Positions 15,501-21,500 of a stretch of 64,000 nt of DNA are shown one piece after another. The stretch's first letter is position 1. Every line of letters begins with the position of its first letter. A program made the position numbers. The DNA is taken from assembly GCF_056712565.1 (NCBI RefSeq), contig NZ_CM160072.1, one strand, 5' to 3'.

Positions 15501-18500
15501 CGCTGGGGGTGATTGGCGTGATTTATGAAGCGCGCCCGAACGTGACGGTTGATGTTGCTTCCCTGTGCCTGAAAACCGGTAACGCGGTGATCCTGCGCGG
15601 CGGCAAAGAAACCTGTCGCACTAACGCTGCAACGGTAGCGGTGATTCAGGACGCCCTGAAATCCTGCGGCTTACCGGCGGGTGCCGTGCAGGCAATTGAT
15701 AATCCTGACCGTGCGCTGGTCAGTGAAATGCTGCGTATGGATAAATACATCGACATGCTGATCCCGCGCGGTGGGGCTGGTTTGCATAAACTGTGCCGCG
15801 AGCAGTCGACAATCCCGGTGATCACAGGCGGTATAGGCGTATGCCATATTTACGTTGATGAAAGTGCAGAGATCGCTGAAGCCCTGAAAGTAATTGTCAA
15901 CGCGAAAACTCAGCGACCGAGCACATGTAATACGGTAGAAACGTTGCTGGTAAATAAAAACATCGCAGATAGCTTCCTGCCCGCATTAAGCAAACAAATG
16001 GCGGAAAGCGGCGTGACGTTACACGCTGATGCAGCCGCGCTGGCGCAGTTGCAGGCAGGCCCCGCGAAGGTGGTGGCTGTTAAAGCCGAAGAGTATGACG
16101 ATGAGTTTCTGTCATTAGATTTGAACGTCAAAATCGTTAGCGATCTGGATGACGCCATTGCCCATATTCGTGAACACGGCACGCAACACTCCGATGCGAT
16201 CCTGACCCGCGATATGCGCAACGCCCAGCGTTTTGTTAACGAAGTGGATTCCTCCGCTGTTTACGTTAACGCCTCTACGCGTTTTACCGACGGCGGCCAG
16301 TTTGGTCTGGGGGCGGAAGTTGCGGTAAGCACACAAAAACTCCACGCGCGCGGCCCAATGGGGCTGGAAGCTCTGACCACTTACAAGTGGATCGGCATTG
16401 GTGATTACACCATTCGTGCGTAAATAAAACCGGGTGATGCAAAAGTAGCCATTTGATTCACAAGGCCATTGACGCATCGCCCGGTTAGTTTTAACCTTGT
16501 CCACCGTGATTCACGTTCGTGAACATGTCCTTTCAGGGCCGATATAGCTCAGTTGGTAGAGCAGCGCATTCGTAATGCGAAGGTCGTAGGTTCGACTCCT
16601 ATTATCGGCACCATCAAGAAAATCAATAACTTAGCTTAACTTCTCTAAGAAATTGTATCTTCTGTTATCACTTACAAACGCCTATACGTTGTTATGGGCT
16701 TTGGTAGTTTAACACGTATGGGCGAGTAGTTCCCAGGCTCAACCTCGTAACAAGTTCCTTTGAAGCTGGAAGACGTGCCACCGTCTCTAAACCTTCTACC
16801 AAAACTCTTAGCAAGATGTTCCACACCTGGCGCGGTGTCCAATGATGCTACACGTCGTGAGACGTTGCAGAGGATAAACAGGCTAAATGATGGGAAGAGT
16901 TTTAAGTGCAATAGTGGATTAAAGCCCACCTCTTCAAAACCTAACTTGATCGGGAAAGAATCAAGCTCTAGCACGGTTTCGTCCACCGGAGTACAACGGG
17001 TGCCTGATAAGAGAAGAACTGCTAAGACTTCATAGCTTTTGTGAAAAAGCCCTTTTTAGTGGATACGCCTACGGCGCTTATTTTTTGGTATAACCATCAA
17101 AGGCGCTTTATGGCTCCTATTGTCTTGAAAATGTATCTTTACTTGTATTGTGTTTTATGCGTAGTCTCCCTGTGTAGTATGTAACTTGTTAATTTTCATA
17201 TGAATACAGAGGCAACACGATGAAAAACATTGCAGCTATAAAACGTAATAACCGCAAGATTCACGCTCGTAAGTTCCTGTCTACGCCAGAGGGAAAAGCC
17301 TGGCTAGAGCGAAAGCAACGAGAGAACGAAGAAAGAAAACTCCTTAGTGAGTTGAAATGGCTTAGAGAGGATTTCTGAAAATCTCCAGAACGCAACAAGA
17401 CGCATTCTAACGCTGTTTTCATTGCTTGGTATAGGGATGTATATGTGATGTGTGTTTAATGCGTCTGTGAGCTTGTTTTGTGCCTTATTTTGCATTTTCA
17501 TAATGCAGAAGAGAACACGGAAAACCTTAAAATTAATTATTGGGGTATTTAAGGCTATTTTAAGGGGATTTAAGGGTATTAAACTTGATTTAATTGATTA
17601 AAATATAAACAGATAGCTCTGCATCTTATTGATTTATAAGGTTATTTTTGAATAAAGGTAAATAAAAAATAAATAGCCATAAATAGCTATAAATAGCTAT
17701 AAATACATCTAAATACATATGAATCCCCTCCCTTATGGCTAGATTGCGAGAGGTGCTTAACGCGATTTTTAGCGCCCCCCGATCTGGAAAATCCAGAATC
17801 CCCAAATATCAAGGAGGCATTACGCCTCCTCTTCTTCCTTCTTAATTCGCTGTACCGTTGAAGGAGCAACATTAAAGCTCTCGGCGGTTTTACGCACTGA
17901 CACGCCAGCGGAAAGGGCTTTCTTTATACCTTCCCTATCTACTGCCTTCCCTTTACCACGCTTTGTAGGATTGACGGCTTGCGCTTCTCGTTTACGCTCT
18001 AACATCAGTTCACGTTCACACGTTGCAACTGCCGACAACATCGTAAGCATCATCTTTCCCATCGCGCTTGTAATGTCAGCAATGATTCCTTCTTTGTGAA
18101 ATCGAACAATTACACCTCGATTATTAAGTTGTTCCACTAAGGCAAGAATGTCTAAGGTGTTACGCCCTAAACGATCAAGAGAGTGGACGTGTAAGGTGTC
18201 GCCTTCTCTCAGATAGGATAAACACGCCTGCAATCCTGGACGGTTAGTGTCTTTACCTGACAGCTTATCTTCAAAGACTTTATCAAGCGTTACTCCTGCA
18301 AGCTGGCGATCAGTGTTCTGATCTACAGTGCTCACACGCTTATAACCGATATTGCTCATAAAATCCTCTTAATGTATCGATTTGGCACTACTTCAATGCA
18401 AATGAGTATATCGTATTCATTTGGTCTGTTTCAAGCCTTATAGGTACGGAATATTACACGATTTAGATGTATTCATTTGGTATGCCTAATGGATACACAG

Positions 18501-21500
18501 GGGAATAGATTAAATGGTGTTCTGTTTATACAGGTTTATTTGTAGATCAACAATTTGGCATTTCTAAACAGATGTTTGAACGTTGCCAAATGTCTTGACA
18601 ACACAAGAAAAGGGCTTGCTATGCCACGCATTACACGAAATAAGGCTATAAAAACAAAATAAATTTTAAAATTTGCACAAACGAGAGAACTCATTCGACA
18701 AATAATAGATTAATTTTTAGCCAACAATTTCTGATGGTGCTCTGTAAGCCGCATTACACAAGGATTTGCGAAAGTGATGTAAAAGTGAAGAAAGTAAGAA
18801 TTGAACTTTTAAGCTACTTTTTCATTGAATTTTTAGTATGGAATTACACAGGAATAAGTTAGGGATATTCTATGATTTACACAGGGAATATAGGGGGATT
18901 ATGGCACACACATAGAAAGACATTACACAGAGTGCTATGTGACAAATGGATGTAACGAGAGGTTACATTCAGCTATCTGAAATGCTCTCTGTAAGAAAGT
19001 TGGTAGTAACGATATGTTACATAGACTAATTATTGAATGTAACGATATTACACATCGGAAGATGATTGAATGTAACGGTAGCTCACAGTGAACTAGGGGT
19101 AGGTCATAGTGAACTACCCCCACAGAATTCTGTTACCCCTATCAAGTCTGATACCCCTACCCCTATCAAAACTAATACCCGATAAGAATAAATAACACCT
19201 AGGAAATGATTTCCGATCTATTTAGGAAGTAACCTAGGAAGTGGTTTCCTACCTACTTAGGAAATGAGTTCCTACCTACCTAGGAAATGAGTTCCACCAA
19301 TACTATAATTAAATACTATAATTAAATAATATAAATAATATTCTTTATACTATATAGGTCATAGTGAGCTAGGGGGTAGGTCACTGTGAGCTACCCCCAC
19401 AGAATTCTGTTAATCTTAACTTTTAAAGAGATTTTTACCCTAACAAAATTCTGTTACCCCACCCTAACAGAATTCTGTTAGACACCCCCACAGAAAACTG
19501 TTAGACACCCCCACAGAATTCTGTTACCTATTAGATCATTTATTAAATTACTTATTAAATTATAATATTATATATTTATTTATATGATCTTTTGCCTTCC
19601 GGCGTTAGCTTCACTCTCTGGCAAGCAGCCTTACTCCGCTACCTTTGGGCTTCGTGGCTGGCCCGTTCCGCTCACACCGAAAGCAAAGCGTTACTTTCTT
19701 CGTGTAACTATCGTTGGCGGTAACGCCCACGAAGAAATACTATTGCGCTGTGCGCAGAAGAGTAATCACCTAACCAATCATACTGATTGCTTATGTGTTA
19801 ACTCTATCTCTCTACCTCGTAATTACCCTCCTACACTTAATAACTCTCGTTATTCTCTGTAGTTGTGTAATTACTCGAAGAGAGAGCGGCTAAAGCTCAA
19901 TTACACTCTGCTTTCCTCGTGTAATTTCACTAAGCCTCAATACAATTCCACTTCCTACATTCTGTAGTCGTGTAATTGTTTTCGGTGGAAAAGCCAGAGG
20001 CGACACCGAAAGAGAATTCTGATCTTATTAATCTTATCTATCTTAGTTATCTTACTTACTTATCTTACTTACTTTATCTACTTTATTATTAATAATAGCT
20101 TTATAAGCTCTCTGTAGCTCTCTGACGCAAGAAACAGCATTCAGGAAGGGAATCACCTTAGAAAAGTGTTCTTTGCGTCATAATGTGTTTTATGAAGGAT
20201 TCAGAGGTGTTTCATAACAGGAGTGTATAGAGGATACTTTAATTAATTAAAAATAAGGGGTCTAAATGCTTCTCTAACAGCATTAAGCAGGGTAGGGAAT
20301 GGAAACGCATTGTCTACATATATAAACTCACTACAGGGCTTTACAGAGCGTTTTATAAAGTGACTCTCTATCTTATATCTACCATCACCTTTTCATATAC
20401 CTAACAAATACAAAATAAGCCCCTTAAATAAGCCTCTGGCGAGCTAAACAGCCATTAGATAAGGCAATGTATTGCTTTTATCAAAATCTCGTTAGAACGC
20501 GTTTTAGAGCGTTTTAGCGGATAATGAAGAATAGCACTACACAGAAGAGCACGAATTGCTAAGAAAAAATGTAAGTGCATGAAAAAGATCAGATTTTTTA
20601 TGAAAAGGTATTGACAAATGTTTCTTTATATGTAATAATAGGTATTAGAGGGACAGAAAACATTCTTCTCTAAATAATCAAAATCAATGCACTTTGAAGC
20701 CGTCAGGCTTGCAAGGTGTTTTATTTCTTTTAACTGAATAAGGAGTTTTTTATGAAATGGTTTACACCGGAACACGTCGTCCAGGCATTTAAAAAAGGTG
20801 AGCTTACACGCCACCAAGTAGTAATGAACCGTAATATGGCAAGGAGTCGAGGTTATCCAGAGCGTGAAAAATGTTTTGACGATGCACTGAAAATTATTGA
20901 TGAACTGCGTAAGAAAGAAGCAGAGAAAGAATAATAGACAAGAGGAGGAGAAAACTATGAGCGAAACTAAGAAACCAATTCCGCGCACTTACCTACACGT
21001 TGACCCTGAAATCTTCAAGGTTTTATTTGCTGAAGCCAAGAAAAGGCAAATTATGGTCAGTGATTTGATGTTAGAAATCATTACTGAAGCAGCAGAGAAC
21101 ATCAAACAAAAAAAGGGTAAGTGATCCTCATTCACTTTAGTAGCGCATTAAGCGTGATTTATAAGGAGATTTTTAATGATTAATGAAGAACAATTTGTAA
21201 AAGTTCCTATGTGGATTCTAAAAATAAGCCAAGTAAACGGGCATAAATTTACAGATAGTGCTAAAAACCTTTACTGCTATCTGAAAGGGTTTGATCGTGC
21301 ATTTCCCTCTTACGCTAAGATAGGCGATGTTTTTGGCATAACACCAAGAGCAGCAGAGGAAAGGGTTAAGAAATTGCTCGAAATGGGGTTAATTATAAAA
21401 GATGCACGACCAGGAAGTTCTAATGTCTATCAAGTGGTAGATATTCCACAAGAAGAAGCTAGACAAGAAGCCAAAACACAACAAGAAGCTACCGTTAAAG

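Follow-up and report, generated by a model that had tools for sequence, protein, structure and literature searches.

A candidate iteron replication origin with stacked initiator specificities in a thrW-integrated island of Escherichia coli

Introduction

What does a stretch of about 2.3 kb do in the chromosome of Escherichia coli when it holds no credible open reading frame (ORF) and is packed with short repeats? The region in question occupies positions 18360-20740 of a 64,000-nucleotide window (contig NZ_CM160072.1 of NCBI RefSeq assembly GCF_056712565.1; by the window we mean this whole stretch of DNA), where it forms part of a 12.75 kb island inserted in the tRNA-Thr gene thrW. It is 100% identical in strain GPEC548 (NZ_CM142809) and is unannotated everywhere it occurs in E. 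coli genomes. An initial annotation of the window listed several repeat families and proposed an iteron replication origin served by a DNA-binding protein encoded nearby, with a partition site, a complex operator or a structured RNA as further options. Comparison with related loci lends support to the first of these. The repeat array adjoining an AT-rich tract co-varies with the type of a putative initiator, Rep, encoded at 21176-21829, and the region is probably the replication-origin and control region of the integrative island.

Results

With an invariant 22-mer of the region (20495-20516) we collected another 64 loci, drawn from metagenomes, IMG/VR and species-representative genomes, and compared 65 related loci in all, the window included; the array counts given below refer to the 41 that are non-identical. 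At each locus five families of dyad-symmetric sites were scored upstream of rep, namely type D (TGTAACGnnnnGTTACA), type E (TAGGTCAnnGTGAGCTA, the dyads found within repeats of about 55 bp), type A (ACAGAATTCTGT), type B (GATACCCCTATCAA) and type C (GGAAnTGnnTTCC). The N-terminal domain of Rep likewise falls into five types, A to E, and its C-terminal part is conserved. The arrays always follow one another in the order D-E-A-B-C. All 41 loci have tandem dyad iterons spaced by about 23 bp, the last array of which abuts an AT-rich tract of 54-105 bp with at least 85% A+T. This last array matches the Rep type in 38 of the 41 loci, a number that none of 100,000 permutations reaches, although the loci are mutually related and the permutation P-value accordingly overstates their independence. 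The family of the same type adjoins the AT tract in all loci with Rep of type D (6/6), type B (10/10, with 3-5 copies of the site) and type C (7/7), and in eight of the nine loci with type-A Rep.

The association is also preserved when the surrounding DNA is exchanged. The spacer occurs in two unrelated variants of 0.5-0.9 kb, and the pairs formed by Rep A with A iterons and by Rep D with D iterons are each seen with both; the Rep A pair is seen, in addition, with both versions of a 55-aa ORF. That the pairing of Rep type and array outlasts spacer exchange is the pattern expected if the N-terminus of Rep recognises the AT-adjacent array. We predict that four of the families in the initial annotation, namely the TGTAACG dyads, GGAAATGAKTTCC, ACAGAATTCTGT and the TAGGTCAnnGTGAGCTA dyads of the 55-bp repeats, together with a fifth, GATACCCCTATCAA, are initiator binding sites, or iterons. 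What that annotation had not seen is that the sites represent five alternative specificities in a fixed order, that a single array is cognate, and that its two 55-bp repeats mark the starts of tandem origins.

How do the repeats of the window fit this scheme? The region is indeed poor in ORFs, the RefSeq annotation being empty across its 2381 bp in the identical genome, and the longest ORF, of 92 aa (19584-19862), is disrupted in relatives by single-base indels. All the repeat families listed initially recur where they had been placed and exceed chance. The palindrome ACAGAATTCTGT is present in six copies, exact at 19122, 19399, 19467 and 19513 and variant at 19443 and 19490; at up to two mismatches it has 10 matches across the window against 2.8 expected, and none of 100 shuffles has as many. 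The four GGAAATGAKTTCC sites (19202, 19237, 19260 and 19283) make up a count that no shuffle matched. The TGTAACG heptamers are halves of the 17-bp dyads TGTAACGnnnnGTTACA at 18951, 19005, 19038 and 19071, a pattern that is only marginal window-wide (6 of 100 shuffles) but whose four copies are grouped within 140 bp. The two direct repeats of about 55 bp (19096-19135 and 19373-19412, 93% identical) each comprise two TAGGTCAnnGTGARCTA dyads and one ACAGAATTCTGT, and long imperfect palindromes have the GTGTAATT and CTGTAG repeats as their arms. ATTACAC occurs 22 times in the window against 8.5 expected, with 10 of these copies within 18453-19976, on the plus strand at the left and mostly on the minus strand at the right. 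A family absent from the original list, (G/C)NTACCCCTATCAA, is found at 19132 and 19156. Pseudogene or sequence decay was considered as the source of the repeats, and is excluded by the conservation and ordered architecture seen in 41 distinct loci.

Read from left to right, the arrays resolve into what we predict to be two complete origins in tandem, each existing separately elsewhere. The first (18951-19354) begins with four type-D dyads, TGTAACGnnnnGTTACA, at 18951-19087, non-cognate here, the fourth of which (19071) is degenerate and overlaps the first E dyad. It continues with the first unit of about 55 bp (19079-19133), made of two type-E dyads TAGSTCAnnGTGARCTA (19079, 19100) and a type-A palindrome (19122), and with two non-cognate type-B sites, NNTACCCCTATCAA, at 19132 and 19156 (19132-19169). 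Four type-C dyads, GGAAnTGnnTTCC, follow at 19202, 19237, 19260 and 19283 (19202-19295), which are its presumed iterons, and AT-rich tract 1 (19296-19354; at least 85% A+T over 75 bp) is its presumed unwinding element. The full series, D x3-4, E x2, A x1, B x2, C x4 and AT tract, is intact, and the island encodes no type-C Rep for this complete and undecayed type-C origin, which we refer to as the orphan origin.

The second, the window's own type-A origin (19355-19590; E x2, A x5 and AT tract), comprises the cognate array at 19355-19524, with type-E dyads at 19355 and 19377 and then five type-A iterons, ACAGAATTCTGT, at 19399, 19443, 19467, 19490 and 19513 (start-to-start spacing of 44, 24, 23 and 23 bp). 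It ends in AT-rich tract 2 (19525-19590), which contains TTATTAAATTA twice, exceeds or equals 85% A+T over 79 bp, and is the presumed unwinding element. Both 55-bp repeats are E-E-A units, each opening one of the two origins. As for the separate counterparts, 18345-19356 is 95.9% identical to the complete origin region of an island with type-C Rep (L045), through its AT tract, and three islands with type-A Rep (L005, L011 and L042) have arrays and AT tracts that share 98.8-100% identity with 19375-19614. A tandem build is present in just one other of the 41 loci (L050), where type C is followed by type E.

Is the protein paired with these arrays an initiator? Rep (217 aa; 21176-21829, plus strand) consists of the variable N-terminal winged-helix domain, a disordered acidic linker and the conserved helical C-terminal domain. 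It matches phrog_270, 'replication initiation protein', at 7.6e-11, and the PHROG 'replication initiation O-like' families at 1.2e-7 to 1.5e-3, with the O-like phrog_391 at 1.2e-7. These are families of phage replication initiators, and the gene that the initial annotation had singled out for testing was the right one. Rep ends in EDFDIPF (21806-21826); [ED]DFDIPF is found in nearly all homologues, and DSLPF or DSIPF in a second lineage. This end resembles SSB's C-terminal tip, which in E. coli reads MDFDDDIPF and recruits PriA, DnaG, chi and others (PMC7913777). A second acidic-aromatic motif, DDWDAPLPW, occurs in the disordered linker at about 21560-21590. The Rep_3 family of Pfam has no match to Rep, and PHROGs, NCBIfam and Pfam recognise no NTPase or primase domain in its 217 aa.

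Several observations weigh against an origin. The similarity of Rep to initiators is moderate. Pfam finds a generic winged helix only (HTH_36 at 0.0011), a profile search of the PDB returns generic winged-helix regulators only, including the centromere-binding protein TubR (E = 0.01-0.9), and the AlphaFold model, with a predicted local distance difference test score (pLDDT) of 59, is too poor for a fold search. No island ORF has a family match to a helicase, a primase or a lambda-P-like loader in PHROGs or NCBIfam, and DnaA boxes (TTWTNCACA) are not present in 18360-20740; with neither loader nor DnaA box, helicase loading in this origin is a conjecture. The origin would lie 1.65 kb upstream of rep and not inside the gene, unlike in lambda: the array is at 19399-19524, rep starts at 21176, and the gene itself contains no iteron repeats. 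The ATTACAC sites, a 420-bp palindrome block described below and the sequence 20109-20600 are not accounted for by an origin. Finally, three loci (L030, L024 and L061) have a non-cognate proximal array. In these, E dyads accompany Rep A, and B sites in one case and C sites in another accompany Rep E; recent recombination, a defective copy or a chimeric assembly could account for each.

Could the arrays be centromere-like partition sites or operators instead, and the protein a regulator that silences or segregates the island? The profile matches to winged-helix regulators such as TubR would suit this idea, as would the names given in RefSeq and UniRef, which are only transcriptional regulator or helix-turn-helix (HTH) protein, and co-variation between protein and site demonstrates recognition, not replication. 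However, the island proteins include no NTPase of the ParA, ParM or TubZ type, which leaves the partition site once proposed without its ATPase. The only strong promoter is 1.1-1.7 kb downstream of the arrays, a distance too great for a simple operator, and the same distance counts against the suggested complex operator. Moreover, every array ends at a long AT-rich tract, the best family matches of the protein are replication initiators, and its SSB-tip-like C-terminus points to the replisome. We regard a partition or operator role as quite improbable.

To the right of the type-A origin, between AT tract 2 and a pyrimidine tract, lies a palindrome-rich conserved block (19591-20010). Its G+C-rich portion at 19591-19760 is nearly invariant in 35 sequences, and at 19800-19985 it contains two copies of an imperfect palindrome of about 105 bp, with arms AATTAC..CTACA and TGTAG..GTGTAATT; the copy number of this unit varies, and some relatives have one. 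Compared with shuffled sequences the block folds strongly on either strand (z = -7.8 on the plus and -9.6 on the minus strand), and so does the unrelated sequence that occupies the same position in the second lineage (z = -5.7 and -5.1). Since both lineages are strongly structured, the conserved property seems to be dyad symmetry beside the unwinding element. The only sequence common to the two spacer variants is AAATAsT(n)TGCGCTGTGCGC, with a small GCGC-TGT-GCGC hairpin (E = 0.065, pairwise), located at 19735-19755 in the window and at about 9740-9761 in L004. The block might form single-strand hairpins where priming or helicase entry takes place, bind proteins or specify an RNA.

An RNA role takes up a suggestion of the initial annotation, which had allowed for a structured non-coding RNA; of the region, only 19585-20010 (perhaps to 20600) could specify a long RNA of this kind or a single-strand DNA structure, and either would be compatible with an origin at its left. 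The folding of both strands and of the second-lineage counterpart speaks for such a structure, together with the near invariance of 19591-19760 and a few one-sided changes that retain G-U pairs on the plus strand. The stems are, however, Watson-Crick on both strands, as expected for DNA palindromes, and left-arm changes in the palindrome at 19815-19880 are uncompensated, while entire palindrome units are gained and lost. Covariation within the predicted 19585-20010 structure (36 sequences) is uninformative because the block is nearly invariant, all 11 double changes coming from one misaligned row, L040. No promoter-like site is directed into the block, and a search of Rfam 15 at E <= 1 over both strands of 16000-30000 matched only tRNA-Thr. 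Such an RNA, taken as the chief product of the region's right half, is unlikely.

The block is followed by a pyrimidine-rich and A+T-rich tract of TTATCT/TTACT repeats (20016-20108) and by a conserved region upstream of the promoter (20109-20610; folding z = -2.6), in which an inverted repeat, TGACGCAAGAAAC...GTTCTTTGCGTCA, is located at about 20123-20182. An invariant motif, TTAGAACGCGTTTTAGAGCGTTTTAG, stands at 20492-20517, about 95 bp upstream of the operon promoter. The same motif is found in T5-like phages (Demerecviridae), the loci being L066 (Klebsiella phage KPN4, 1501-1544), L067, L068 and L069. In these phages it recurs several times between genes, with a TTGAC hexamer about 40 bp downstream of every copy, and they have nothing else in common with the region; the motif could be the binding site of a common regulator. 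The sigma-70-type promoter of the rep operon (20611-20639, plus strand; TTGACA, 17 bp, AATAAT, extended TG) is predicted to be strong, with 11 of 12 positions matching, and is conserved in all four variants compared. Between it and the first ORF (20752) we read a leader hairpin with a T-run (20689-20731, plus strand), a feature absent from the list given by the scan that reported the promoter. Its stem is kept with loop changes in L004, and a T-G pair favours an RNA of the plus strand. The rep operon may be controlled by termination or attenuation in this leader, or may give rise to a short leader RNA.

On the other side of the arrays, a family-wide conserved block (18683-18940) carries ATTACACAGR sites on the plus strand. 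Its identity is 79-97% across all variants, even where the iterons are unrelated, and it could provide accessory protein sites of the origin region. The adjoining recombinase-proximal block (18360-18682) contains two copies of GTATTCATTTGGT (18413 and 18469), an inverted pair ATTTGGCA/TGCCAAAT and a minus-strand promoter-like site (18434-18405). It is replaced where the recombinase type differs (L003) and missing where the recombinase is missing (L004), and probably combines the recombinase promoter with a res-like recombination site. The recombinase itself, the left neighbour of the non-coding region, is a small serine enzyme of the resolvase/invertase class (179 aa; 17820-18359, minus strand) with matches to Pfam Resolvase (1.8e-33), HTH_7 and phrog_125 DNA invertase (6e-55). 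To the left of its gene, at 17540-17730, very A+T-rich DNA harbours a cluster of three GGGTATTTAAGG-like repeats and four copies of AAATAGCYATAAATA; the cluster is also found in L004, which is without the recombinase.

The match to DNA invertases raises the possibility of an invertible switch, in which the adjacent recombinase would act on inverted repeats as crossover sites and flip a promoter or its own gene. A 16-nt inverted repeat, 94% complementary, does bracket the recombinase gene (17699-17714 and 18461-18476), and the E dyads give 26-nt inverted repeats 250 bp apart. The dyads are palindromic, however, and so read as direct and inverted repeats alike, and by eye no resemblance to hix or gix sites is seen. 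Inversion of any segment was likewise not found in the 64 related loci, which yield 0 minus-strand high-scoring segment pairs. A switch of this type is extremely improbable.

The island is bounded by two exact copies of a 20-bp direct repeat, ACTCCTATTATCGGCACCAT, both on the plus strand: attL (16595-16614) at the 3' end of thrW, a tRNA-Thr gene at 16538-16613 found by the Rfam scan and also present in the annotation, and attR (29340-29359). Metagenome contigs break at both repeats, which supports these boundaries; island-size metagenome contigs checked for circularity have no terminal overlap and just end at the att repeats. A tyrosine integrase (27919-29253, minus strand; phrog_1, 4.7e-33) is encoded just inside attR. 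Directly outside attR, an unannotated ORF at 29513-29851 corresponds to the N-terminus of a P4-type integrase and is apparently left over from an element that occupied the thrW site earlier. The plus-strand operon begins at 20752 with two small ORFs, continues with rep as its third gene and then includes several unknown ORFs. NCBIfam NF058537, 'RNA-binding regulator', matches the first ORF (20752-20934, 60 aa) weakly and below threshold (E = 0.006). The 55-aa ORF (20957-21124) appeared ribbon-helix-helix-like by eye, and this assignment, without support from Pfam, PHROGs or NCBIfam, was dropped. PADLOC gave no hits to defence functions among the small ORFs.

Further along, 23929-27839 holds genes for capsid-like, tape-measure and tail/baseplate proteins. 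The capsid-like protein is about 24% identical to capsids of Pseudomonas myophages, and the tape-measure protein 30-36% identical to that of virulent Stephanstirmvirinae coliphages of about 148 kb. It is possible that the island is a phage satellite or that it interferes with assembly. With these structural genes encoded and no portal or terminase recognised among the island proteins in family searches, a satellite would need the packaging of its helper, and the repeats might then be sites for the small subunit of a helper phage terminase within a pac or cos packaging site; the 26-nt motif common to T5-like phages could be taken in the same sense. The arrays, however, co-vary with an initiator-like protein of the island and not with any helper, and the same region is present in islands without structural genes. 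When the region was compared with 50,697 phage and 72,556 plasmid records by megablast and blastn, the sole hit was a 45-nt motif, shared with one T5-like phage and with two records from E. coli. We consider a packaging site very improbable.

How widespread is the region? Part of it is carried by 726 of 5426 complete E. coli genomes (about 13%), and at least 80% of it by 184, the right half being more widely conserved than the left. A DNA-pattern scan found relatives in Escherichia only, plus two contigs of 'Bacillota' metagenome-assembled genomes. These contigs, L018 and L020 (JAEYLX010000052 and JAEWTL010000083), filed as 'Bacillota bacterium', carry Escherichia island sequence and are probably binning errors. 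Sibling islands of about 8.8 kb are inserted at the thiamine pyrophosphate (TPP) riboswitch upstream of thiM, which they duplicate (L002, from ATCC 8739, and L003, from UID2309220009). They share with the thrW island a module in which recombinase gene, non-coding DNA (about 2 kb), small ORFs and rep are combined, and have defence-type cargo, a GmrSD or HNH nuclease, and no structural genes. The module is kept in these otherwise different islands, and is therefore a core maintenance module.

Discussion

How might an origin of this architecture operate? In the scheme that we favour, the variable N-terminal winged helix of Rep would recognise iterons with dyad symmetry, about 12-17 bp long, and a run of four to five of them at intervals of about 23 bp stands directly beside an AT-rich tract of 60-80 bp. 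By analogy with the lambda O-some, dimers of Rep seated on 19399-19524 would introduce a bend, and the AT tract at 19525-19590 would come open. The conserved C-terminal domain with its last residues EDFDIPF, an SSB-like tip that might be displayed at the origin near the hairpin-rich block, would next bring in the host replisome. We infer Rep binding and origin firing, as well as the roles of the C-terminal tip, the spacer and the recombinase site, from comparisons of sequence.

The remaining arrays would be the iterons of four alternative Rep specificities, which are known from sibling islands. Their stacking is most simply explained by recombination between such islands, with new arrays being added on the side of the AT tract. 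Might the orphan type-C origin have a use of its own? It is conceivable that it allows a sibling, whether co-resident or newly arriving, to supply in trans the initiator by which the island is copied, or else titrates that initiator and so keeps a competitor out, and that the EDFDIPF tip of Rep, once at the opened origin, recruits the SSB-interacting PriA, DnaG or Pol III chi onto the hairpin block, bypassing DnaA and a phage-type loader. We put this forward as a speculation that is rather unlikely to hold as a whole.

The closest parallel is the replication origin of lambda, in which four iterons stand beside an AT-rich tract and those nearest the tract are bound and matter most (PMC7466680). 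Like the O protein of lambdoid phages, including Stx phages, Rep combines a specificity-determining N-terminal DNA-binding domain with a more conserved C-terminal domain. Its predicted sites are likewise four to six tandem dyad iterons spaced by about 20-24 bp, placed directly beside an AT-rich tract. In both systems the iterons nearest the tract are the cognate or important ones, and initiator and iterons co-vary between relatives (PMC7466680). The island differs from lambda, besides the displacement of its origin, in having no gene for a P-type helicase loader, in stacking arrays of several specificities, and in the presence of about 1 kb of conserved palindrome-rich DNA between origin and operon. 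Rep itself is about two-thirds the size of O and has the SSB-tip-like end EDFDIPF.

Other comparisons are instructive in a more limited way. Staphylococcus aureus pathogenicity islands (SaPI) and other phage-inducible chromosomal islands (PICI) are integrative, encode their own initiator and use an iteron origin that differs in specificity between siblings. The thrW island is alike in these three respects, and firing of its origin presumably follows excision. Initiators of PICI are fusions of primase and helicase, and the origin lies just 3' of rep, whereas the island Rep is without helicase or primase domain and the origin is upstream. In iteron plasmids such as pSC101, F, P1, R6K and RK2, iteron arrays stand beside an AT-rich unwinding element and extra clusters occur outside the minimal origin; R6K has several origins for one initiator, and IncF plasmids have several replicons. 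The island arrays also adjoin an AT-rich tract and are accompanied by extra ones. Plasmid iterons are direct, non-palindromic repeats of 17-22 bp, bound by Rep_3-type monomers and usually accompanied by DnaA boxes. The island sites are dyads, with neither a Rep_3 match nor a DnaA box, and the extra arrays have other specificities, for which the island carries no initiator gene in cis.

Iteron origins served by a lambda-O-like initiator are a known kind of element. What is unusual is its distance of 1.65 kb from the gene, the stacking of five specificities in a fixed order, the orphan origin, the SSB-like tip and the island family itself. Literature searches on the island, Stephanstirmvirinae satellites, the iteron strings and an SSB-tip-bearing initiator returned nothing relevant, and no paper was found on the displaced origin, the stacked arrays, the island family or its repeats; the family matches no satellite type described in the searchable literature.

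If our interpretation is correct, the loci offer, within one scaffold, five naturally occurring initiators with their matching iterons, a collection that would be suited to studying the evolution of origin specificity and a possible source of orthogonal replicons. The stacked arrays would then be a record of origin exchange, in which new arrays are installed beside the unwinding element and old ones are displaced outward, and the SSB-tip mimic would be a candidate for a new route of host replisome recruitment. The region also marks an undescribed family of small islands, some with capsid and tail genes and others with defence genes, which may live as satellites, as defence islands or as both.

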